Positions 231 through 63,383 of a stretch of 64,000 nucleotides of DNA are shown here, in pieces. This stretch comes from an uncultured Candidatus Saccharibacteria bacterium. Lineage in GTDB: Bacteria > Patescibacteriota > Minisyncoccia > Phycocordibacterales > SIBU01. The DNA is taken from the NCBI GenBank assembly GCA_964355335.1, contig CAYHDB010000002.1, positions 3,192 through 67,191 of the forward strand. Direction: 5' to 3'. The notes under the pieces are model-generated. The model made no database searches and was not told the DNA's origin. It was given only the letters and a program-made list of their open reading frames with translations. Position numbers and translations under genes: made by a program. How positions within the stretch are numbered: the first letter of the stretch is position 1; each line of letters begins with the position of its first letter.

Positions 231-393
231 TGATTTAAAACCTATGCACCTTCCTAAAATTCTCCTTTTTTAAAGGGAGGGAACCGCTTGCGGTGAGGGA
301 TTTGTTACAAAGCAAAAATCCTCCGGCTTCGTAGACTCAGCCACCTCCTTTAGTAAAGGAGGAATAAAAAATCGATAATCGGAAGCACTTTGG

Positions 394-5482: not shown

Positions 5483-5587
5483 ATACGAAAATACGAAAGG
5501 TACAGATATACGAACATATACGAAAAAGCTTCTTGATTCCTGTTCGTATTATTTCGTATATTTCAGCGACCCCTTTTTCGTATTAAG
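5483..5587. repeat. TACGAA-heptad palindromic element, copy 3. It overlaps the stop codons of the two convergent genes jag and the 5583..6830 ORF.
   Basis: aaatacgaaaatacgaaaggtacagatatacgaacatatacgaaaaa | gcttcttgattcctg | ttcgtattatttcgtatatttc..ttttcgtatta. Core nearly identical to copy 2. Confidence 0.85.
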
Positions 5588-6830
5588 GCTGTAGCCGTAG
5601 GCTCCAAATGTGCGAGTCGTTTTTGTCTGTGAAGAATAGATAGCCTTCATCGGGACTGAGCATAAGGTTCGTGCCGTCAATACTTTTGCCCGACATCTCT
5701 TTAAGTTGTCCGATTATTTTCCCGGTACCGTCGCCTGCGTATATTTTCCAGATATCGTCGGAGAATGACACAACTCCTTGGTACCAGGCGTCAGGGTAAA
5801 TCTCTGTTTGCAAATATGTGGGGACACTACAATAAATCACCTGAGAGTCTTTTGTGCTCCAGACACATTTTTCGGGAAGAGTACCAAGCGAAGTGTCTAG
5901 GGCCTCACCTGTTTTTAGAGAATATATTTTAAGAGACATTCCACCTTGTAAACTTTCTGAATAAAGAACCGACGTGCCGTTTGGTCCTACAAGTGTAGTC
6001 AGGCCCTTAATACCTGATATTGCTCGAGAGAGAGCACCGTTTTTTGTGTTCAGGATAAACATAAATCCAGGCTCGTTTGCTGAGGCTCTAGTGGTCAGGG
6101 ATATCGTCTGGGATGTTGGCCATTGCGGAATCCATTCTCGCAGAGGAGAGTCGAATACACCAGTCTTTTTGCTACCGTCATAATCTGAAATGACACCGGA
6201 GCTTCCGTCAGAGTAATTCAAAAGATAGAATATTTTACTTCTATCCGGGTCGGTCGTCATAGATTTTATGTTCCCCGATAGGAATGAACCTTTGAGCTCC
6301 CCTCCTCCCAACCCATCGGTCGCAGGTGTGAGTTCCGCATAGTATGTTTCGATTCCCGTTGTGCTGTCAGATTTTTCATAACGTGCTACAAGTTTTGTAC
6401 CAGTCTTATTCCAGTAGGCTTCTTGTACCTTCGGAAGTGTAGTGTTCGACAGTCGATTTTCTCCGGAAATGTCAGGACTCACTTCATAAACATTCCCAGT
6501 CCCCTTCTCAAGGAAACGGACAAGCACACTTTGATTTGAAGATGTGGCAAAGGCGACAGAGCCAGCCGAAGGTCTGGTGGACAACTCCTTTAAGAGATAG
6601 GCGTTTTGCGCCGTAGGTTTGTTCTCATTATTTTGTGGAGGTGTCGTGGTTTCGGGAGGTACTGTCGTCGGTGTCGTCCCTGTGTCGCTGTCCGGGAAAA
6701 TGTTTGTACCGCCTGTTGGGGTTGTTCCTCCCGTCTGACCACCGTTGTAGTAGAAATAAAATGCTAAAACACCCGCGATGGCGAGGATTATTACTATGGA
6801 TATTATGATTGTTGCGGTTTTTTTGGACAT
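5583..6830 (-). CDS. Membrane-anchored protein with Thr/Pro-rich linker and beta-propeller-like (TolB/WD40-like) domain
   Basis: N-terminal TM (IIISIVIILAIAGVLAFYFYY), then a TTPTGG low-complexity linker, then a repetitive beta-rich C-terminal region. Confidence 0.5.
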   Translation of the reverse strand: MSKKTATIIISIVIILAIAGVLAFYFYYNGGQTGGTTPTGGTNIFPDSDTGTTPTTVPPETTTPPQNNENKPTAQNAYLLKELSTRPSAGSVAFATSSNQSVLVRFLEKGTGNVYEVSPDISGENRLSNTTLPKVQEAYWNKTGTKLVARYEKSDSTTGIETYYAELTPATDGLGGGELKGSFLSGNIKSMTTDPDRSKIFYLLNYSDGSSGVISDYDGSKKTGVFDSPLREWIPQWPTSQTISLTTRASANEPGFMFILNTKNGALSRAISGIKGLTTLVGPNGTSVLYSESLQGGMSLKIYSLKTGEALDTSLGTLPEKCVWSTKDSQVIYCSVPTYLQTEIYPDAWYQGVVSFSDDIWKIYAGDGTGKIIGQLKEMSGKSIDGTNLMLSPDEGYLFFTDKNDSHIWSLRLQP

Positions 6831-9137: not shown

Positions 9138-10103
9138 TTATTCTGCGTGACTTGATTCTTCGTTTCCCTTCTTTTTCCGGGCCTCGTATGAGTTGCTAAG
9201 GTCAAGAAGGTTGCTATGCCAACTTAGCCGCTCATCTTCCTCGGCTTCTTCTGGGGATTGATTACGATTGCCCCCTCTGGACTCTGGTGAATTGCCTCCT
9301 CCCCTTTTGCGACCGCCACCTCCGAACAAACTTCCACCACCCTGCCCTCCGCGATTTCCTGGTTTTTTCTCCCCGCCCTTTTTTTTGTCCTTATCATCTC
9401 CTCCCTCCTTCCCTTCACCTTCTTCTTTGGTTTCTTCCGAGTTGTCGTTTTCTGATCCCCCTTCTTTATTCTCTTCCTCTTCATCCTCCTCAGAATCGTC
9501 TCCCCCTTCTTCTTGCTCGCCCTCACCTTGCTTGTTGCTTTCCTCTTCCTGACCACTCTCATTTGATGTTCCTTCCTCCCCTCCTGTTGCCTCAGCTCCT
9601 GCCTCGGCTCCCTCGGCCGCACCTGCACCAGCCTCTGCCGCTTCGGCTCCCGCGATTGCACCCTCGGCCGCTTCGCCTGCCGCAAGTGAGGCGCCACCTG
9701 TTTCAGGCGCCGCAGCCACAGCGGCCGCCGCGATTGCCGCCTCCTCGGCCTTTTTTAGAAGTTTTTCTGCCTTAATAAGTAGAAATACGACAATACCGTC
9801 GAGGAACCATAAAGGTAGAGCATTTAATATTGGGATTGTTTCAAAAATGAAAGTAGCGATGATGCTTCCCCCCATTTTCATACTCTTCATGTTCACCCCG
9901 CGAAGATATAGGTAGGTAGGCCAGGCCATTCCGACAAGAATATCTATAAAGGTGTTGGCGATTATCCCAATCCCTATAAAATCCAGCCCTATTTGTGCAA
10001 GGTCCACCATGAACAATGCACTGATGGCCATCCCCCATTCAGTGTTGGATATTTTTTCTCCTTCGTGGCCCTTCTTTTTTTTCTTTTTTTCTTCGTCCTC
10101 GGC
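9138..10103 (-). CDS. Membrane protein with Ala-rich helix and highly acidic Gly/Glu/Lys-rich low-complexity tail
   Basis: Start assigned to MAEDEEKKKKKKGHEGEK so the gene does not overlap the DUF559 gene. 3-4 TM segments. Long E/G/K-rich tail. An A8-G-A8 homopolymer tract lies in the coding sequence near 10070-10090. Confidence 0.5.
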   Translation of the reverse strand, partial: AEDEEKKKKKKGHEGEKISNTEWGMAISALFMVDLAQIGLDFIGIGIIANTFIDILVGMAWPTYLYLRGVNMKSMKMGGSIIATFIFETIPILNALPLWFLDGIVVFLLIKAEKLLKKAEEAAIAAAAVAAAPETGGASLAAGEAAEGAIAGAEAAEAGAGAAEGAEAGAEATGGEEGTSNESGQEEESNKQGEGEQEEGGDDSEEDEEEENKEGGSENDNSEETKEEGEGKEGGDDKDKKKGGEKKPGNRGGQGGGSLFGGGGRKRGGGNSPESRGGNRNQSPEEAEEDERLSWHSNLLDLSNSYEARKKKGNEESSHAE

Positions 10104-10113
10104 CATAAATTGT

Positions 10114-10461
10114 TTATACCTTAATGAAATCGCGTATTTCTCGCAGTACGCTATCAAGATTATACCTCACATCACTATCGACAAACCTTAGAAACTTAAT
10201 CCCCAGTGATTCTAATGTTCGCTGTCGGTCAGTATCATCATCTATCTTGCTGTCATGACTTATCCCATCTACTTCAATAGCCAAGTTTAATGTCGAGCAA
10301 TAAAAATCAACGACATAATTCCCTATCGGACGTTGACGAAGGAATTGATAGCCAAGTTTCTTTGCTCGCAACTCTTTCCACAGCAAAACTTCTGCCAGAT
10401 TTTCTGCTTTGCGTAGGTTTCGAGCAATCCGCGCCAGTTTTTGATTGTAATGCAACTTCAT
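10114..10461 (-). CDS. DUF559 domain protein (Vsr/very-short-patch-repair-like endonuclease fold), selfish-element-like
   Basis: C-terminal 115 aa of the listed ORF: MKLHYNQKLARIARNLRKAENLAEVLLWKELR..VDFYC..LAIEVDGISH.. (DUF559 signature). AAAGGAGGAAC Shine-Dalgarno 6 nt upstream inside a CCTCCTTTATTAAAGG hairpin. Confidence 0.7.
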   Translation of the reverse strand: MKLHYNQKLARIARNLRKAENLAEVLLWKELRAKKLGYQFLRQRPIGNYVVDFYCSTLNLAIEVDGISHDSKIDDDTDRQRTLESLGIKFLRFVDSDVRYNLDSVLREIRDFIKV

Positions 10462-10589
10462 AAGTTCCTCCTTTATTAAAGGTCGGAGTCCTCGGAGATA
10501 CGTCGGCGAAGGTGGCACATTCCGATGTGACGGAGGATTTAAATCCCTCCCCCTCGCAGACTCAGGTACTCCCTTTAGGAAAGGGAGAA

Positions 10590-12437
10590 TTAAGACGGGG
10601 TTTGTGCAGTAGGTTGAGTCTCTTTTTCTCCCTGTTCTTCCAATTCCTGTTTGGCTTGTTTTATCGCCAGAAGTTGTGATGGGTCTGATGTGATAATCTG
10701 GTCTTCGGTATATGAAGCGATGACTTTTATGGCAACGTGCTTCATTCCAACGAAGAATATTCCTTCTCCCACATCGCACTCAAGAAGTAGATATTTTTCT
10801 TCGTCGGTGAGATTGAAAGTTTTTTGGACACGTTCAATAGACGATGGGGATTGTTTCAGAAGCATCTGTATCGAGGAATTTGTAATAATCGGTAAACCGT
10901 ATGGAGATTTAAGAAAGTCGTCCACGTCCTGAGTGATTGTCGCGAGGCCGAGATAGTATTTGCGACCTCTCTTTGCTAGCCCAAGCAGGAAAGAAGCCGT
11001 ATCCTCGGATTTCATCATCCACCATGCTTCATCGATGACCAGTAGGCGCTTGCGAAGATTCTTCCTGATAGCGTTCCAGATATAGTGAGTGACGATGTAC
11101 ATTGCCACAGGTTTCAACTCGTCCTCCATATCTCGGAGTGAGAACACGATAAACTTTGCTTCAATATCGATGTTTGAAGGTTTATTTATAAATCCCGCCC
11201 ACGTACCTCTGGTGTATTTGGAAAGCCTTTGAACAAGTGAGTCCCCTCCCTCCATCCCCGCAAGCACCAATTCAAAGTCTGAAAGTAGTGGTGGTTCGAC
11301 ATTTCTAAAGTCCGAATCCGGAGTAATGTCTTTAAGTGCGTATGTTTCGCTGATGGCGCGGTCAATAATCGCATCCTCTTCTGGCGTTAAGCCACCAAGC
11401 ATAATTCTGAACAAACCCACAAGATTTATGATGTTTGAGCGCAGAACATCCGAAGAAGCCTCGTCTTCTCTGGGTATAGGAAGGTCGAAAGGATTTATGT
11501 GGTGAGTCGAGTTTAGCGAGATTGTGAAATATTTTCCGCCGGTCGCTTCTGCCATATATTCATATTCCCTTTCCGGGTCGATGACGATAACTTCGGTGTC
11601 AAACATCAGCGTTCGTAGGATTTCAAGTTTTGTATTGTAGGATTTTCCTGAGCCGGATTTCGCAAAAGTTATTGAGTTGTAGTTTTCCAAAGAAAATCTG
11701 TCGAAGAGGACCAAGGAAGAATTGTGGCGGTTTATACCGTAGAGTATTCCCTTGTCTGATGTAAGGTCGAATGAAGTAAACGGGAACAAAGAAGAAAGGG
11801 GTGAAGAATTGAGCTTTGAATGAACCATAAGCTCATCTTGAGCAATAGGCATTACACTTCTGAAGCCTTGTTCTTGCTGGAAAAGGGCGGGTTTTAGATA
11901 AATCAGCTTTGATTCTAGAATGGATTTGATTTCCGATTCTATCTTGTCCAGCTCCTCGTCACTCTTGCCGTATATTGAGATATATAGACCGACATCAAAC
12001 AGTTTCTCCTGCGCCTGCATCAGATTGTCTCGCAGTCTTTCAAGGTCTTGATAAGCTGTATCAAGCATAGGGTCTCGGACCATTCCCTTTTTCGCACGCT
12101 CGTTTATTTGGCTTTGGACCTCTGCCACTTTTTTCTGAAATTGACGTAAAACAATAGCCGTATCGATAGGATGAATGAATATTGAAATATCAAATACCTT
12201 GTCTAGGTTGATAATTGGTGAAAACCACCCTTCCGCAAGGAAGCGAGGGTAAGAGATGACAAAGAATGTTCTTACGATGGAGTCACCAAGGTTAAGAGCC
12301 CGAGGAGTCACCTTGAGTGCTGAAGGGGCGATGATATCTTTCAACTCCAAAACCCCGGATTCGTAAATCTCTTGGGGTAGGATGCTCGCAATGTCAGGAG
12401 CTTTGTCTTTTCTTTTTAAAAAATCAAATATTCCCAT
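10590..12437 (-). CDS. VirB4/TrbE/PrgJ-family conjugative-transfer ATPase, C-terminal two-thirds (ATPase domain)
   Basis: Walker A FAKSGSGKSY. Walker B LLVIDEAWWMM (DEAW is typical of VirB4). True start taken as MGIFDFLKRK; the residues upstream in the listed ORF are translated from the repeat element. Confidence 0.7.
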   Translation of the reverse strand: MGIFDFLKRKDKAPDIASILPQEIYESGVLELKDIIAPSALKVTPRALNLGDSIVRTFFVISYPRFLAEGWFSPIINLDKVFDISIFIHPIDTAIVLRQFQKKVAEVQSQINERAKKGMVRDPMLDTAYQDLERLRDNLMQAQEKLFDVGLYISIYGKSDEELDKIESEIKSILESKLIYLKPALFQQEQGFRSVMPIAQDELMVHSKLNSSPLSSLFPFTSFDLTSDKGILYGINRHNSSLVLFDRFSLENYNSITFAKSGSGKSYNTKLEILRTLMFDTEVIVIDPEREYEYMAEATGGKYFTISLNSTHHINPFDLPIPREDEASSDVLRSNIINLVGLFRIMLGGLTPEEDAIIDRAISETYALKDITPDSDFRNVEPPLLSDFELVLAGMEGGDSLVQRLSKYTRGTWAGFINKPSNIDIEAKFIVFSLRDMEDELKPVAMYIVTHYIWNAIRKNLRKRLLVIDEAWWMMKSEDTASFLLGLAKRGRKYYLGLATITQDVDDFLKSPYGLPIITNSSIQMLLKQSPSSIERVQKTFNLTDEEKYLLLECDVGEGIFFVGMKHVAIKVIASYTEDQIITSDPSQLLAIKQAKQELEEQGEKETQPTAQTPS

Positions 12438-13300: not shown

Positions 13301-13660
13301 TTATATCTTTTTTACATTATCAATGCGAACAATACGAATTGGTTTGATAATTTTTTCTCTAAAATTAACCAGATACCCTAAACGCATCTGGGTTTCCTGT
13401 AAGTAATGTTGGACTTGGCGGTAGTCTTCAGGAGTCAGTGCACGTTTCGCTTTCAATTCAAGGATAATTTTCTCTTCAATCAAAAAATCAAGTATATTTC
13501 CACTATTAGATATTGCCAATTCTCTTTTGTATGCAATTTTTCTATTTTTTAGCTTTTCTTCAATTATGTCCGCGTATTGCTTCTCTCTTCCGTACAATCC
13601 CAGTTCTTTATGAGCCTCAAGGAAAATTCCCACTAAATCGTAAGACAAGTTAGGGTATAT
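13301..13660 (-). CDS. GxxExxY-family protein (PD-(D/E)XK-like), small cassette-like gene inside the T4SS-like operon
   Basis: ..LVGIFLEAHKELGLYGREKQYADIIEEKL..GNILDFLIEEKIILELKAKRALTPEDYRQVQHYLQETQMRLGYLVNF.. follows the GxxExxY family pattern (lG.G..E..Y...L...L.....D....iilElK.......h..Q...YL.....gLLiNF). Start uncertain: an ATG inside the repeat, or an internal TTG/GTG. Confidence 0.6.
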   Translation of the reverse strand: MYPNLSYDLVGIFLEAHKELGLYGREKQYADIIEEKLKNRKIAYKRELAISNSGNILDFLIEEKIILELKAKRALTPEDYRQVQHYLQETQMRLGYLVNFREKIIKPIRIVRIDNVKKI

Positions 13661-13669
13661 TACTTTCGA

Positions 13670-13722
13670 GGACACACTTTTCGTATTTGTTCGTATATCC
13701 GCATCCATTCGTATTTTCGTAT
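13670..13722. repeat. TACGAA-heptad element, short copy 6 (ttttcgtatttgttcgtatatccgcatccattcgtattttcgtatc)
   Basis: TTCGTAT units flanking a short core. Lies between the GxxExxY gene and the prgI-like gene. Confidence 0.6.
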
Positions 13723-14166: not shown

Positions 14167-14290
14167 AAATATACGAAAATACGAATTTTACGAAACTACG
14201 AAATAATACGAACACCGCGCTGGTGACACAAAAGTTTTCGTATATGTTCGTATGTCTGTTTCATTTCGTATGTTCGTATGGTTAGTGTAG
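14167..14290. repeat. TACGAA-heptad palindromic element, copy 7
   Basis: aaatatacgaaaatacgaattttacgaaactacgaaataatacgaaca | ccgcgctggtgacacaaaag | ttttcgtatatgttcgtatgtctgtttcatttcgtatgttcgtatgg. Confidence 0.85.
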
Positions 14291-25174: not shown

Positions 25175-25290
25175 GAAAATTTTATACGAATATACGAAAG
25201 TATACGAAATTAAGAAAATAGTCAGATGGCAGTTTTCGTATTTGTTCGTATATTCGCACAAATTCGTATTTTCGTATACTAATCAAGGTA
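25175..25290. repeat. TACGAA-heptad palindromic element, copy 8, between pcrA and rsmA. Abuts the rsmA start codon.
   Basis: catacgaaaattttatacgaatatacgaaagtatacgaaatt | aagaaaatagtcagatggcag | ttttcgtatttgttcgtatattcgcacaaattcgtattttcgtatac. Confidence 0.85.
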
Positions 25291-48951: not shown

Positions 48952-49254
48952 ATGTCCAAACAATTTATCAGAACAATTGAGGATTTCACGTGCGAACATT
49001 GTGGTGTCGATGTGAAAGGTAACGGCTACACCAATCACTGCCCGAAATGTTTGTGGAGTAAGCACGTGGATATAAATCCGGGGGATAGAGCAGAAAGGTG
49101 TGGGGGATTGATGGAACCCATCGGAGGAGCCAAGGTTAGTAAGGGATACATGCTTACGCACCGGTGCGTAAAATGTGGTTTTGAAAAAAGAAATTCGTTA
49201 AAACCCGAGGATGATTTCGATGTATTTCTAACTCTTGCCGGAAAGCTTTCGTAG
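48952..49254 (+). CDS. RNHCP-domain zinc-ribbon protein
   Basis: ..FTCEHCGVDVKGNGYTNHCPKCLWSKHVD.. and ..HRCVKCGFE.. Cys pairs and (R/T)NHCP motif. Confidence 0.5.
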   Translation: MSKQFIRTIEDFTCEHCGVDVKGNGYTNHCPKCLWSKHVDINPGDRAERCGGLMEPIGGAKVSKGYMLTHRCVKCGFEKRNSLKPEDDFDVFLTLAGKLS

Positions 49255-49327
49255 GCGCTCGGTTCCTCTCAACCTTTTCAAAGGGGGAGATTGAGAGGGG
49301 GTGAGTAGAACATTTTATAACCACCTC

Positions 49328-50146
49328 TCATTCCTCTTTTTGGAAAGTAGGGGAGGTAGAGACATCTGATTTTAGCGAAGCGTCGAGCCGTTTCGCCTCT
49401 GCCCACGCCAGCTCGTAGATTTTTTTCATAGCGTCCGCGATTTCCGCGCTTTCGATGATGACTCCTAGCTTCTCGCGCCACGAGGCAATCATGATTTTGT
49501 TGTCGTAGATGTTTATTTCTGGGGAAAAATAATATTTGTCCGGCGGGACAAACGCTATCTCGCGTTTTTCTTCCGCGTCGAGCGCCCTACGCTCTTCACC
49601 CATTGGCGTTTTTGGAGCGATGGCGCGAATAGCAATATTTTTCTCCGCTCGGCGTTTGTAATACGAGGGAAAATAATTTGGCAGGCCCTTGTGCATGTCG
49701 TCTACTGTTGCATATGCTCGAATCGACTCGGTCGAGGTGAGCGTATCTTCATACACATGCCGTAATCCTTCCGTGCCCTCGTAAAATTTTATTTTCGGTC
49801 GGTTCTGTTTGGCATGAAGCAAGTTTAATTCCGGAATCAAAGCTTCGGCTTTTTTGATATGCTCGGATGTCTGCTCCGCCACTTTTTTCAAGAATGCAAT
49901 GATCGCCTCCGGCGGTTCGGCGGCAAATTCCGATTTTGGTTCCTTGCCGGAAATGGTAACGAGTCCTTTGTTTGCTAGGGAACTCAAAATGTCGTAGCCG
50001 GTCGTTCTATTGATGCCAGCCTTTCGGCTGATTTGAGTGACCGTGCCTTTGCCGAGTTCCAGCAATGCAACGTAAACAGTCGTCTCCTTTTCGCCGAAAC
50101 CAAAACTCCGCAAAGTCATTTTCAATTGTTCGTTCGGGTCTTTCAT
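49328..50146 (-). CDS. TrmB-family transcriptional regulator (paralog 3)
   Basis: ..FGFGEKETTVYVALLELGKGTVTQISRKAGINRTTGYDILSSLANKGLV.. Confidence 0.75.
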   Translation of the reverse strand: MKDPNEQLKMTLRSFGFGEKETTVYVALLELGKGTVTQISRKAGINRTTGYDILSSLANKGLVTISGKEPKSEFAAEPPEAIIAFLKKVAEQTSEHIKKAEALIPELNLLHAKQNRPKIKFYEGTEGLRHVYEDTLTSTESIRAYATVDDMHKGLPNYFPSYYKRRAEKNIAIRAIAPKTPMGEERRALDAEEKREIAFVPPDKYYFSPEINIYDNKIMIASWREKLGVIIESAEIADAMKKIYELAWAEAKRLDASLKSDVSTSPTFQKEE

Positions 50147-50620
50147 GTTTTGTTTTTCCTCCCCTTCTTGCGAAGGAGGGGAAAGAGGGGTGGTTACGAC
50201 CCATCCTCAATCCTCCCCTTCGAAAGGGGAGGAGAATTAAGGTGAAGTATACTCCCAATCCATTTTGTGTCAATCTTTTTCGACAAAAATATGCTCATAT
50301 TCTTAAATATATTGATAAATATGGCGTTATTAAACATATTATTGACGATATTTATTGACAATAGGGTCTAGAAATGTTACGATTATGTCAGAAAGATACG
50401 AATCGTCTCGACAGGCTCGAGATAAACAAGTTCTTTGAAACCTGCTTGCTGAAGTCATAGGTTTAGTCATCTTCGACAGATGAATAGTGCGCGGGTTCGA
50501 AACCGCCCACTTATCATCTGTCGAGTGAGGCATGTGTCATCCTGAATCGGCTTGAAAACCCGAGCAGAATTGAAAAGTGTAAATCCGCATTTTTCTTCAC
50601 GAAACGGATGAACCAAATTT

Positions 50621-59231: not shown

Positions 59232-59400
59232 TTGTAAAGCCTTATACGAAAATACGAAAGGGGAGAATATACGAACAAATACGAAAACAGCCCATGGCCG
59301 GAACGGCCACGGGCTGTAGGACCGCAAGGTCCCATTTTCGTAAACTTTCGTATATCTTCTCGATTCGTATTTTCGTATTATTTCAGTATTTCGTCTATCA
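59232..59400. repeat. TACGAA-heptad palindromic element, copy 11, with a ~55-nt GC-rich double-hairpin insertion in its core. The right arm overlaps the clpP stop.
   Basis: ccttatacgaaaatacgaaaggggagaatatacgaacaaatacgaaaa | cagcccatggccggaacggccacgggctg taggaccgcaaggtccca | ttttcgtaaactttcgtatatcttctcgattcgtattttcgtattatttcagtatttcg. Confidence 0.8.
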
Positions 59401-59950: not shown

Positions 59951-60003
59951 ATGTAATACGAATTACGAATAGGTACGAATATACGAATAATACGGAGAGT
60001 ATA
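59951..60003. repeat. Half-element: four tandem TACGAAT heptads ending at the clpP start codon, with no opposing arm
   Basis: atgtaatacgaattacgaataggtacgaatatacgaataatacgg. A perfect palindrome TAGACTTG-A-CAAGTCTA lies at 60015-60031. Confidence 0.7.
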
Positions 60004-60183
60004 ACAAGAGTAGATAGACTTGACAAGTCTAGGTTTTACTGTAATGTATTTTCATCGCCATTGTCTAAAGCTTGGCGGGTCGTTAGTAGGTTCTTCTCGA
60101 ACCTACCTCGTGATGCTTCCGAACTTTATCGGTTGTGACGGGCCAATATCTGGTAGCGGGAAATCTTCTGAAAGGAGATAAAA

Positions 60184-60609
60184 ATGAGAAATGAGTACAT
60201 TACAAACTTTGTGGAACAAATGGTCGGTCAAGGACTGATGAAGGGGATTTCTGCCCAAGCATACACCTTTCAATCGGCATGGGACCTGCGTAAACTTCTG
60301 GAGCCTGTCATCAGACCAAAACTGGAGCCAATGACTGCCGAAACTCTTGGCAGGATTATTGAGTACAGTGATGTTGTTCACCGGCAGAGTAGGTGGGAAG
60401 CGTATGGACTCATTGGCAAGGAGCATTTGATCAACAGAGAAAACCTTACCGCTCAAACGGAAGTGGGGGTTTACGCCACATACGGTGGCAAGCAACTTCT
60501 TGTGCATCTTGCCATGTTGACTGTTCTCGCGGTGGTGTTTGATGTCATTAACCAAAGAGACTATCAAGAAATTCAGGGGTTTGATAGGGAGGATCCGGCT
60601 TTTTGGTAA
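60184..60609 (+). CDS. Hypothetical protein (141 aa)
   Basis: No recognisable motif. Terminator gcccgtcacttcggtgtcgggctttt follows. Confidence 0.4.
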   Translation: MRNEYITNFVEQMVGQGLMKGISAQAYTFQSAWDLRKLLEPVIRPKLEPMTAETLGRIIEYSDVVHRQSRWEAYGLIGKEHLINRENLTAQTEVGVYATYGGKQLLVHLAMLTVLAVVFDVINQRDYQEIQGFDREDPAFW

Positions 60610-60721
60610 TTTACTTTGTCACAGCCCGTCACTTCGGTGTCGGGCTTTTCTTTTTGTGGTTTTCCACTACAATTGATAAATCATTCTTACCTCTCCTCCT
60701 TTCGAAGGAGGAGAAAGAGAG

Positions 60722-61105
60722 GTGGTAACTGTGTTTGTAAACAATATCCAAAAGCAGAAGCTCAAGCGAAAACTTTTGCGGAACAACGCGACACCACAGG
60801 AAGTCGTATTGTGGTCGCGACTGCGCGACAGTCAGCTAGGGTTTAAGTTCAGGAGACAAGCTAGTATCGGTAATTTCATTGCGGATTTTTATTGTCCGAC
60901 AAGGAAGCTTGTTGTGGAGGTTGATGGTTCACAACACATAGATAGTGAATCGGATAAAGAACGAACAAAATTTCTAAATACGGCGGGTGTATACGTTTTA
61001 CGATTTTGGAATAATGAGGTTGATGGGAATTTGGATGGAGTGATTACGAAAATTATTACCACCCTCAATCCCTCCTTTGAAAGGAGGGAAGGGGAAAAGA
61101 CATGA
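60722..61105 (+). CDS. DUF559 domain protein (Vsr-like endonuclease fold), hairpin-bounded mini-element
   Basis: ..LRNNATPQEVVLWSRLR..FKFRRQASIGNFIADFYCPTRKLVVEVDGSQH... GTG start after a GAAGGAGGAG Shine-Dalgarno in the hairpin cctctcctcctttcgaaggaggagaaagagagg. The 3' end encodes ..TLNPSFERREGEK across the hairpin ccctcctttgaaaggaggg. Confidence 0.7.
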   Translation: MVTVFVNNIQKQKLKRKLLRNNATPQEVVLWSRLRDSQLGFKFRRQASIGNFIADFYCPTRKLVVEVDGSQHIDSESDKERTKFLNTAGVYVLRFWNNEVDGNLDGVITKIITTLNPSFERREGEKT

Positions 61106-62287: not shown

Positions 62288-62352
62288 ATGATGAAGGTTG
62301 AAAAGATTTTAACCACCCTCAATCCCTCCTTCGAAAGGAGGGAAGGGGAAAA
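62288..62352 (+). pseudogene. Remnant of a DUF559 element 3' end (encodes ..ILTTLNPSFERREGEK over the hairpin ccctccttcgaaaggaggg)
   Basis: aaccaccctcaatccctccttcgaaaggagggaaggggaaaagatt matches 61055-61100 at 44/46 positions. No endonuclease body. Confidence 0.6.
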
Positions 62353-62354
62353 GA

Positions 62355-63383
62355 TTATTTTTGAGATTCCAGAAAGTCGAATACTTTTTCGTTGGTCATC
62401 ATCATTGCGACATAGGCGCGAGTACGAGCTGGGTCTGCTTCCTTGTAGTGTTCGAGCATGTGTTTCACTTCTTCTTCAATCGCCTCGGCGCTGGCGGAAA
62501 TTTTTTCTTGTTTTGCTATGGCGTTCCACACCAGCTGTAGTTTCCCTCGTTTCTCCGCGTCCGGTCTCCACTCCTTGCGCATATCTTCTTCCGTCTTTTT
62601 TATGTGTTTCAGATAGTCTTCGATTTTCATTCCCATTCTTGCGATGTCGTCATTGAAACGTGCGAACATCTTTGCCATTTCACTTTCAATTAAAGCCTTC
62701 GGCACAACGGTATCTGTTTTCTTTAGAATTGCTTCGGCAAGTGTCAGTCTTTTTTTATCTTTGGCTTTTTGTTCTTTTTCTTGGGTAAGATTTTCTTTTA
62801 CTTTATTTTTGAAATCAGTGACATCTTTGAAGTCACCAAGCTTTTTTACAAATGTGTCATCGAGTGTTGGCAATTCTTTCACTTCACCTCCTTTCTCCGC
62901 GCTTTGAGCAAAACCTTTTCTAACATTTTCTATGAAGTCAGCAACTTCTTTTTCTGAGACGACTACCTCCTCGGGTTTTTTTGAGTTTTCCGATATAGCG
63001 ATTTTTTTGTAGTCAGGAAGTTTCACTTCAGGCAGTACACTCACAGTGATAGTAAAAGTCAGAGGGTTTCCCGGAGCGAGCTTGGTGATTGTGACGTGAG
63101 GGTCTCCGACAAATGAAACTTTTTTCTCTTTGATAATTTCCGGTAGGATTTCCTCAACGGCTTCATAGCCCGCTTCCTCTAGGATCGCAAGCTCTCCGAC
63201 TTTTTGGATTAGAATATTTTCCGGTACATGGCCAGGTCTAAAGCCCGGAATGTTCGCATGTTCGGACATTTCCTTTATGGCTTTTGACCTATGTTTTGCA
63301 AGTGTTTCATAGGAAATCTCCGCCTCGATTTGAAGCTCGGACTCCGGTAAATTTTTCTCTCCCAATAGTGTGTATGGTTTCAT
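62355..63383 (-). CDS. tig: Trigger factor, short form (342 aa, apparently lacking the PPIase domain)
   Basis: N-terminal ribosome-binding signature ..IPGFRPGHVPENILIQKVG... The tig-clpP neighbourhood is conserved. Confidence 0.7.
   Translation of the reverse strand: MKPYTLLGEKNLPESELQIEAEISYETLAKHRSKAIKEMSEHANIPGFRPGHVPENILIQKVGELAILEEAGYEAVEEILPEIIKEKKVSFVGDPHVTITKLAPGNPLTFTITVSVLPEVKLPDYKKIAISENSKKPEEVVVSEKEVADFIENVRKGFAQSAEKGGEVKELPTLDDTFVKKLGDFKDVTDFKNKVKENLTQEKEQKAKDKKRLTLAEAILKKTDTVVPKALIESEMAKMFARFNDDIARMGMKIEDYLKHIKKTEEDMRKEWRPDAEKRGKLQLVWNAIAKQEKISASAEAIEEEVKHMLEHYKEADPARTRAYVAMMMTNEKVFDFLESQK

Follow-up and report, generated by a model that had tools for sequence, protein, structure and literature searches.

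A probable selfish cassette in a Saccharibacteria genome: a DUF559 nuclease gene between inverted BoxC/PIT/TM-type repeats

BoxC/PIT/TM repeats have been known in Escherichia coli since the 1990s, and the earlier work on BoxC and PIT, as cited in PMC4666352, came from Bergler, Bachellier and the Maher laboratory. Holder et al. (2015) described the class as motifs of three blocks, pyrimidine-purine-purine (Py-Pu-Pu), which form intrastrand triplexes in vitro (PMC4666352). The TM repeats, with 23 copies in strain K-12 and five pairs inverted, occur in more than 260 genomes in association with rearranged loci, and their sites are more rearranged between E. coli strains and are regarded as rearrangement hotspots; functions providing mobility were never found near them, and the words 'endonuclease' and 'ycjD' are absent from the paper (PMC4666352). 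Here we analyse one 64-kb stretch (G+C 44%) of the genome of an uncultured Candidatus Saccharibacteria bacterium (assembly GCA_964355335.1, contig CAYHDB010000002.1, positions 3,192 to 67,191; hereafter the window), in which the gene for a small nuclease of the DUF559 family lies between two inverted TM-type motifs directly before rsmE. Judged by the names under which its homologs are recorded, the window belongs to Patescibacteria of a Paceibacteria/Taylorbacteria-like kind. We consider it probable that this locus, at 60722, is a selfish cassette of ~410 nt, made of a YcjD-type DUF559 nuclease gene and its inverted TM-type ends and accompanied by non-autonomous doublets of these ends. Below, this unit is called element A, repeats like its ends are called family A, and those in the leader of a second DUF559 gene, gene B, are called family B.

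60722-61105, plus strand: DUF559 nuclease gene A, 127 amino acids (aa), Pfam PF04480 E=2e-34
60688-60728, plus strand: left end of element A, three-block TM-type motif made of a hairpin and a third purine block
61058-61100, minus strand: right end of element A, same three-block motif, hairpin 61069-61089, tail to 61100
10114-10461, minus strand: DUF559 nuclease gene B, 115 aa, Pfam PF04480 E=9e-30
10462-10589, minus strand: leader of gene B, a family-B doublet of 128 nt with hairpins Ha and Hb and an inner stem, without third block
50148-50240, no strand assigned: gene-less family-A doublet, two inverted TM-type motifs, hairpins 50160-50182 and 50211-50233
49262-49357, no strand assigned: gene-less family-A doublet, more diverged, 71/91 identical to the joined ends of element A
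62297-62354, plus strand: solo right end with the last ~8 DUF559 codons, tblastn E=7e-7
255-368, plus strand: gene-less family-B doublet filling a convergent intergenic spacer, fold z = -2.9

Two DUF559 genes and the ends of element A

Six perfect hairpins with a pyrimidine arm followed by a purine arm are present in the window (344-362, 10569-10587, 50211-50233, 60692-60714, 61069-61089 and 62323-62343), and the arrangement CCTCCTT-N2-8-AAGGAGG occurs four times vs 0.00 expected. The left end of element A reads TCTCCTCCTT-TCG-AAGGAGGAGA, with the pyrimidine arm at 60692-60701, the loop TCG and the purine arm at 60705-60714; its third purine block, AGAGGTGG (60718-60725), contains the GTG start of gene A and offers ten purine-motif triads on the plus strand. 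The right end repeats this layout on the minus strand, where the complement of the third block, ACCACCCTC (61058-61066), is followed by TCCCTCCTT-TGA-AAGGAGGGA (61069-61089), again with ten triads. Aligned with the reverse complement of the right one, the left end is identical at 36 of ~47 positions; the two form terminal inverted repeats. The gene runs into the right one: its last 15 codons lie there, the hairpin encodes the C-terminus ..LNPSFERREGEKT of the protein, the stop codon overlaps the ATG of rsmE (ACATGA), and the purine arm stands 12-20 nt upstream of that ATG.

Under the triad rule for the class (G*G:C, A*A:T, T*A:T; stem of at least 6-8, short loops), the family-A motifs at 50160, 50211, 60692, 61069 and 62323 give 8-10 triads and conform to it, and the family-B motifs at 344 and 10569 give only 4-5 and do not. 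As is typical of the class, the window repeats are intergenic, dispersed and often arranged as inverted pairs, as in the doublets 50148-50240 and 49262-49357 and at other loci. The E. coli consensus TMECO, CCCTCNCCC-N3-6-GGGNGAGGG-N3-GGGNGAGGG, does not describe the window stems TCTCCTCCTT, TCCCTCCTT and TCCTCCCCTT; it does describe many proteobacterial DUF559 flanks and the copy beside E. coli ycjD. By sequence, then, the ends of element A belong to the BoxC/PIT/TM class. An earlier reading of the window from its letters and open reading frames (ORFs), the sequence-only reading, had noticed the hairpins; that a hairpin with its adjacent purine block has the BoxC/PIT/TM architecture went unrecognised there. 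A G-quadruplex reading of the purine blocks was rejected, as the purine runs of the window contain too few G-tracts, and Rfam searches of the hairpin regions (gathering thresholds and E<=5) covered them with no family, returning only four tRNAs and weak terminator-like matches. Searches of the literature, with most subscription-journal papers outside their reach, returned no report of a link between DUF559 and BoxC/TM repeats and no description of hairpin-bounded DUF559 units.

Both nuclease genes, which the sequence-only reading had taken to be intact DUF559 copies, pass the PF04480 gathering score (103 and 118 bits vs a cut-off of 20.6) and are just 45% identical to each other. Gene A matches the NCBIfam YcjD model at E=2e-24; the alignment is full-length but diverged, the two window genes scoring 69 and 86 bits and not reaching the cut-off of 218 of the YcjD equivalog NF007294. 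The catalytic core (D55, E66, D68, H72, D78, R81, R94, F95) is invariant across 26 sequences including both window copies, and the D, E-x-D, H and R-F-W positions of the family are kept in genes A and B. The nearest solved structure is a Neisseria DUF559 protein, PDB 3HRL (E=9e-22; profile E=5e-33; full-length alignment), and the homing endonuclease I-Bth0305I comes next with its catalytic domain (3R3P, DUF559 profile E=0.002). The PADLOC model 'HEase' matches DUF559 at E=0.0012; identity as a defence system was rejected, PADLOC having given only weak matches, to generic nuclease models. The family is large (~23,700 DUF559 clusters at 50% identity), and a six-frame tblastn search of the window (E<=50, word size 2) found no further DUF559 coding copy besides the C-terminal fragment at 62297-62353.

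The Shine-Dalgarno (SD) sequence of gene A, GGAGG in the 3' arm of the left end, stands 9 nt before the GTG start and is paired with an anti-SD-like arm. Gene B sits between a VirB4-like gene and the next gene of a type IV secretion system (T4SS) cluster, whose ATG follows the stop codon of gene B by 7 nt. In its leader, hairpin Ha (10569-10587) begins 1 nt after the VirB4 stop, the inner stem is GAGGGATTT/AAATCCTCC, and hairpin Hb (10468-10490), beside the ATG, is degenerate (CCGACCTTT-AAT-AAAGGAGG, five contiguous pairs), its purine arm serving as the SD of gene B. No 3' hairpin or right end is present at the gene B locus. The sequence-only reading had described both genes as starting right after a hairpin with a perfect SD and as bounded by hairpins: for the 60722 gene the SD hairpin and the second, C-terminus-encoding hairpin are as described, and for the 10114 gene the hairpin is degenerate and none bounds the 3' side. 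Its statement that most genes here lack an SD agrees with a crude census of the 20 nt before each start, in which a strong SD was found in 4/55 window genes; three of the four come from the elements, namely those of DUF559 itself, of rsmE and of the TrmB-like gene after the 50148 doublet.

A separate signal was also noticed. The tandem heptamer TTCGTAT-N-TTCGTAT occurs at 20 window sites (at most 1 mismatch) vs 0.6 expected, for example at 767-781, 5483-5497, 13708-13722, 14171-14185, 25263-25277 and 59364-59378; the sites are intergenic, often right before the start codons of genes without SD, and may represent a promoter or leaderless-start signal.

Gene-less copies, empty sites and travelling ends

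The 50148 doublet is 73/87 identical to the joined ends of element A and folds into one long hairpin (-50.6 kcal/mol, z = -4.66), as does the 49262 doublet (-45.3 kcal/mol, z = -4.15). The two bracket a TrmB-family regulator gene (49328-50146, minus strand): the former begins 1 nt from its ATG and supplies the SD-like AAGGGGAGG 11 nt before it, and the latter encodes its last nine codons (..STSPTFQKEE) and stop. Because both align with both ends of element A, they are complete gene-less doublets and not the 3' remnants that the sequence-only reading had placed at 50140-50240 and 49250-49340, and tblastn detected no coding trace in the gene-less doublets. The remnant that it had seen near 62288-62352 is a true solo right end: 62303-62354 is identical to 61049-61100 at 48/52 positions, offers nine triads on the minus strand and stops exactly at the stop codon of the trigger factor gene (62355-63383, minus strand). 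Its gene-less leader copy at 230-370 also proved sound, as the 255-368 doublet is homologous to the gene B leader with 70% column identity. The several decayed copies it supposed were not found as coding sequence beyond the solo end, and the gene-less copies look like non-autonomous palindromic doublets, comparable to miniature inverted-repeat transposable elements (MITEs) or REPINs, rather than decay products.

A metagenome scan with RsmE yielded 21 loci, of which 12 keep the order rny-clpP-(variable)-rsmE-tig (ClpP 77-98% and RsmE 45-89% identical). None of the 12 syntenic relatives has a DUF559 gene before rsmE, and in four of them the clpP-rsmE spacer is 94-181 nt. Three of these spacers keep the same promoter-like 'ttccactacaatt' shortly before the rsmE ATG, and the stretch kept in L089, L092 and L095 is 'gcttttctttttg..c(c/t)actacaatt'; in the window, a unit of ~410 nt is placed between this stretch and the ATG. 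One locus, L113 (RsmE 82% identical), carries a DUF559 homolog, 86% identical, at the same rsmE site with ends almost unchanged; here the host flank, RsmE and the nuclease have diverged from the window while the ends stay alike. Since L084 lacks the element though nearer in RsmE (89%) than the carrier L113, the distribution is patchy.

The same comparison at the other site gave a similar picture. The contigs that encode VirB4 homologs 98, 93, 93 and 91% identical were located; on all of them the next T4SS-cluster gene follows after 62-98 nt vs 482 nt in the window, and DUF559 follows virB4 in none of these four relatives. Related Paceibacteria DNA (87.5 kb and 38.1 kb) contains no DUF559 and no TM-type hairpin, whereas the window has five strict hairpins; one other, G+C-rich Py-Pu hairpin passed the scan there, at a single site. 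Contigs of the same strain (L001-L003) all carry the element in one orientation, and hence offer no empty site from this strain. Conserved orthologous positions, which had been set beforehand as the outcome speaking against mobility, were not observed, the elements being absent in the 12 syntenic and the four VirB4 relatives. Both DUF559 genes of the window are, from this comparison of sequences, recent insertions.

The ends also accompany the gene elsewhere. Homologs 64-72% identical were found in three unrelated contexts (L114-L116), beside MNT/HEPN or HigB toxin-antitoxin genes. All three keep the left end, with pyrimidine arm, purine arm, GGGGTGG block and start codon; in L114 and L115 the right end is kept and aligned as well (ACCACCCTC, pyrimidine arm, purine arm), and in L116 the right-end hairpin is present in the sequence, outside the alignment of L114 and L115. 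Similarity to the window ends just outside the end blocks, and the outer flanks differ; conservation covers the left end in L113-L116, with a diverging upstream flank, and the right end in L113-L115. One stem position differs jointly in all three blocks between groups, as T:A*A vs C:G*G. The unit is gained and lost as a whole, with ends more strongly conserved than the DNA around them.

Two neighbourhoods deserve a description in their own right. The clpP-rsmE spacer (window 59951-61101; L084 1047-3000; L085, L086, L090, L091) is a hotspot for small selfish modules; it holds a 141-aa hypothetical gene and the DUF559 unit in the window, and RelE/ParE-like toxin-antitoxin pairs and one HicA/HicB pair, all without hairpins, in other relatives; its length varies between 95 and 1955 nt. 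In the T4SS-like cluster, the gene downstream of gene B (9138-10106, minus strand) encodes a long, highly acidic, Gly/Glu/Ala-rich low-complexity tail, has no Pfam match and keeps its place after VirB4 in every relative examined. A second small nuclease gene (13301-13708, minus strand; PF13366 PDDEXK_3, E=3e-20) lies between PrgI-like and TraC-like genes of the cluster, without flanking Py-Pu hairpins, and is variously present, fragmentary, duplicated or absent in close relatives, whose clusters also hold 23S_rRNA_IVP and Y1_Tnp genes.

DUF559 loci in other bacteria

A genome scan with the DUF559 alignment gave 80 loci with 83 genes from Patescibacteria, Alpha-, Gamma- and Deltaproteobacteria, Bacteroidota, Chloroflexota, Nitrospirota, Deinococcus, Helicobacter, Omnitrophota and others. 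With hairpins defined by thresholds of our own (at least 8 pairs, at most 1 mismatch, loop 3-9, 5' arm at least 85% pyrimidine), 60/83 genes have a Py-Pu hairpin no more than 170 nt upstream, 56/83 have one no more than 150 nt downstream, and 43/83 are flanked on both sides. The density is 2.6 hairpins per kb near the gene vs 0.14 per kb in the rest of the same loci, a 19-fold enrichment. As a covariation count would be circular on hairpins selected for pairing, enrichment was judged together with a mirror-image control. Hairpins of the mirror-image type (Pu-Py) number 3 near and 9 far, vs 156 near and 99 far for Py-Pu; because they are almost absent, the far Py-Pu copies are real dispersed elements, mostly doublets 35-100 nt apart or tandem arrays. 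Stem sequences vary by lineage yet stay complementary.

The third block is likewise general, since at least eight triads accompany 60% of the 142 DUF559-proximal hairpins vs 4.6% with shuffled flanks. The motifs are oriented: those upstream lie on the coding strand (30:11) and those downstream on the opposite strand (33:8), and the third blocks face the gene, with (+,-) in 14 loci vs (-,+) in 2. Flanking repeats scoring at least 40 are direct in 28/82 loci and inverted in 30/82, vs 0 with shuffled flanks. Phage records contain a relative in 3/50,697 cases and plasmid records, mostly of megaplasmids, in 41/72,556, a rarity that led us to reject phage or plasmid cargo as the main vehicle; the DUF559 examples on cyanobacterial plasmids have the same flanks.

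Some individual loci may be mentioned here. On a plasmid of Synechocystis sp. B12 (L111, 2292-4816), a DUF559 and TM unit has a 175-aa DUF1156 fragment on one side and a 'hypothetical' ORF on the other, the arrangement expected had it split a DUF1156 gene. On pAQ6 of PCC 7002 (L112, 2929-6282), a DUF559 gene closely precedes a DUF1156 gene; the fetched stretch contains the first ~2.7 kb of the latter. Tandem hairpin arrays stand by DUF559 in L031 (1-900), L056 (5150-6650), L078 (6530-6720) and L025 (5490-5760), with periods of ~40, ~165, ~185 and ~220 nt; two hairpin types alternate in L031 and L056.

In E. coli K-12, the 3' side of ycjD shows a degenerate hairpin over the C-terminus, then a duplicated C-terminal remnant and then CCCTCGCCCCTCTGGGGAGAGGGTTAGGGTGAGGGG, which is TMECO no. 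9 in Table 1 of Holder et al. (1,351,239-1,351,204, antisense; PMC4666352); the 3' end of this repeat is 168 nt downstream of the ycjD stop, on the same strand. When 66 nt of the region downstream of ycjD serve as query, 5,426 complete E. coli genomes show a median of 16 places each. The duplicated remnant (..ETVLENIRQGLNRP..), placed between the degenerate hairpin and TMECO no. 9, has a layout like that of the solo end 62297-62354 in the window.

Interpretation, alternatives and known systems

In the reading that we prefer, element A is a selfish cassette. Each terminal repeat consists of a pyrimidine arm, a loop, a purine arm, a short loop and a second purine block facing the gene, and the gene-less versions are two inverted motifs that fold into one long hairpin, as in MITEs and REPINs. 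The 10114 copy may then be a second, diverged cassette with a two-hairpin leader of the other family, which has lost its right end or never had one. The insertions sit at the boundaries of genes, where intergenic spacers are very short. The nuclease gene has its SD in the purine arm (AAGGAGG), paired with the anti-SD-like arm, and the purine arm of the opposite end supplies an SD to the downstream host gene, which would limit polar damage in a genome hardly using SD. In this way the cassette imports SD sequences into a genome that barely uses them and passes them to neighbouring host genes. The nuclease might recognise its own ends and the doublets when these are folded as a hairpin, cruciform or triplex, and nick or cut there; break repair or recombination may then copy the unit or the doublets and cause local rearrangement.

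A broader idea, which we offer tentatively and which may well prove wrong, is that YcjD-type DUF559 nucleases are the missing enzymatic partner of BoxC/PIT/TM repeats across bacteria, as RAYTs are for REPs. The target of the nuclease would be the folded hairpin or triplex, perhaps with the mismatch that is often conserved in it; cutting there would both spread the repeats and cause the genome instability at TM sites, and the gene-carrying cassette of the window would be the autonomous form of the element. The tight, oriented association of DUF559 with TM repeats across many phyla and the strain-level gain and loss of the combined unit make this a candidate explanation for both the repeats and the gene family. 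The question can be put to a direct test in E. coli K-12, where one ycjD stands beside 23 repeats with five natural doublets. As to published observations on the family, the Caulobacter DUF559 protein VsrA damages DNA and triggers a DNA-damage response in vivo (PMC12907096), DUF559-containing repeats are recombination hotspots in Legionella, and DUF559 coding sequences (CDSs) are enriched among genes overlapped by inverted-repeat pairs (PMC9881135).

Several observations weigh against these interpretations. At 10114 the ends are of another type, and both third block and right end are missing. At their junctions, the empty sites in L089, L095 and L105-L109 have neither a hairpin nor a motif in common; this argues against classical homing into doublets already present at the rsmE and VirB4 sites, and the whole unit arrived at hairpin-free spacers. 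Nothing convincing as a target-site duplication was found at the flanks of four elements, nor are the exact ends fixed, because the nearest empty sites with DNA on record are ~80% diverged. One locus, L065, has two DUF559 copies 3.6 kb apart (5669-6379 and 9292-10001) with 711 nt in common at 87% identity, and the common stretch takes in ~90 nt of the 3' end of an upstream Sua5/YciO-like gene; as the copied segment exceeds the hairpin-bounded unit, it looks like segmental duplication or co-conversion and not precise transposition, and the pair, judged by its alignment, argues against clean cut-and-paste. About one quarter of the DUF559 loci lack a hairpin under the thresholds we chose. In E. 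coli, a single ycjD at the one locus examined stands alongside ~23 repeats, a situation that fits a domesticated partner better than a mobile gene. To our knowledge, no cleavage activity or specificity has been described for any YcjD-type protein.

One may suppose instead that the TM/BoxC repeats are independent, fragile host repeats and that DUF559 and toxin-antitoxin genes pile up at unstable spots. The stronger rearrangement of TM sites between E. coli strains (PMC4666352) would be explained in this way, as would the RelE/ParE-like and HicAB modules in the clpP-rsmE spacer of other relatives, the toxin-antitoxin genes adjoining close DUF559 homologs and the fact that most E. coli TM copies are far from ycjD. 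We nevertheless think this unlikely, since the empty sites and 125 kb of related DNA are free of TM-type hairpins, the same ends are found with the gene in four different contexts, the third blocks consistently face the gene, the ORF begins and ends within the repeats, and the toxin-antitoxin modules at the same hotspot are devoid of hairpins.

The location of the SD in a 3' arm paired with an anti-SD-like arm, with the start codon in or beside the structure, raises the possibility that the hairpins are expression signals of a toxic nuclease gene, sequestering SD and start on the 5' side and acting as stabiliser or terminator on the 3' side; they would then play no part in mobility, the gene-less copies being scars left by deleted genes. 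E. coli ycjD likewise has its annotated GTG start within a 15-bp hairpin, CACCTCATTCTGACA/TGTCAGAATGAGGTG, on the 3' arm (L110, 11041-11828), and the solo end 62297-62354 keeps coding sequence. Such a role alone is distinctly unlikely, because the gene-less doublets have both ends, form complete palindromes and retain no trace of coding sequence, other genomes contain tandem arrays and dispersed doublets, the upstream hairpins in many phyla lie 50-140 nt before the aligned start, and a mirror-symmetric third block has no role in an SD-sequestering stem. In addition, PIT elements showed no promoter or terminator activity in E. coli, according to the account given in PMC4666352.

It is quite improbable, in our estimation, that the nuclease gene is immobile and vertically inherited and maintains TM doublets as a domesticated, REPIN/RAYT-like partner, patchiness being due to loss. 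The element is missing in many relatives at both sites, including L084 (RsmE 89% vs 82% for L113) and the strain with a 98% identical VirB4; close homologs stand in unrelated contexts; the window has two copies, and several loci hold two DUF559 copies within 12 kb. For it speak the one ycjD of E. coli with its 23 TMECO copies and five inverted pairs, the L113 element at the same rsmE site as in the window and the rarity of the gene on phages and plasmids. A domesticated, immobile partner thus fits E. coli but not the window. An invertible switch, in which the inverted repeats flip the nuclease gene on and off relative to a host promoter, is hardly credible: the gene does lie between ~45-nt inverted repeats, and CDSs predicted to undergo programmed inversion are enriched in 'DUF559 domain-containing protein' at an odds ratio of 14.3 (PMC9881135), but no invertase is nearby, L001-L003 and L113 all have one orientation, and many loci have direct instead of inverted flanking repeats.

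The selfish cassette may finally be set beside known systems. An analogy with integron cassettes and their attC-like hairpins was rejected, there being no integrase, short hairpins and inverted ends rather than one site per cassette. With Vsr the window nucleases have in common a related fold and catalytic core; they differ in their TIGR00632 score (19 bits vs a cut-off of 97.85), in having no adjacent cytosine methyltransferase (the neighbours are a VirB4-like gene, a T4SS-cluster gene, a hypothetical protein and RsmE) and in being multi-copy, mobile and repeat-flanked.

Phage homing endonuclease genes have their translation signals buried in a hairpin, and those of the window gene are buried in the same way. 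Like homing endonuclease genes, especially that of the Vsr-like EDxHD enzyme I-Bth0305I (3R3P), it is a small, selfish, intergenic nuclease gene, and VSR, DUF559, DUF2726 and a group I intron homing endonuclease form one PD-(D/E)xK clade (PMC3424549). The window unit differs in having no intron, intein, conserved host-gene target or separate DNA-binding domain, and the empty sites show no recognisable homing site. The sequence-only reading had proposed a small selfish element resembling a homing endonuclease: the selfish mini-element is upheld by the patchy sites, the ends that move with the gene and the gene-less copies, and the homing is not, the empty sites showing no recognisable target.

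Insertion sequences and MITEs resemble the unit in the ~45-nt terminal inverted repeats, the ORF running into the repeat, the internally deleted two-ended derivatives and the insertion polymorphism between relatives; the window unit, at ~410 nt, has no recognised transposase fold for a complete reaction, and its flanks display no target-site duplication. With REPIN/RAYT systems it shares a short palindrome arranged in inverted doublets, each folding as a long hairpin, the small enzyme gene flanked by its own repeats and the many gene-less copies per enzyme gene. The enzyme here, however, is a PD-(D/E)xK nuclease and not a Y1/HUH transposase, DUF559 being the sole ORF of the unit; the GTAG/CGTC tag is not seen in the window elements, and the window gene, in two copies, is itself gained and lost.

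The closest likeness is to BoxC/PIT/TM repeats, in the consecutive Py-Pu-Pu blocks, the third mirroring the second with T allowed opposite A, and in the intergenic, dispersed, often inverted-pair arrangement associated with variable genome sites. The window stems are AT-richer and SD-like (TCTCCTCCTT/AAGGAGGAGA) compared with CCCTCNCCC/GGGNGAGGG, and the family-B hairpins are without a third block. Whereas the published work on these repeats reports no mobility or enzyme gene, the window motifs form the ends of a gene-carrying unit.

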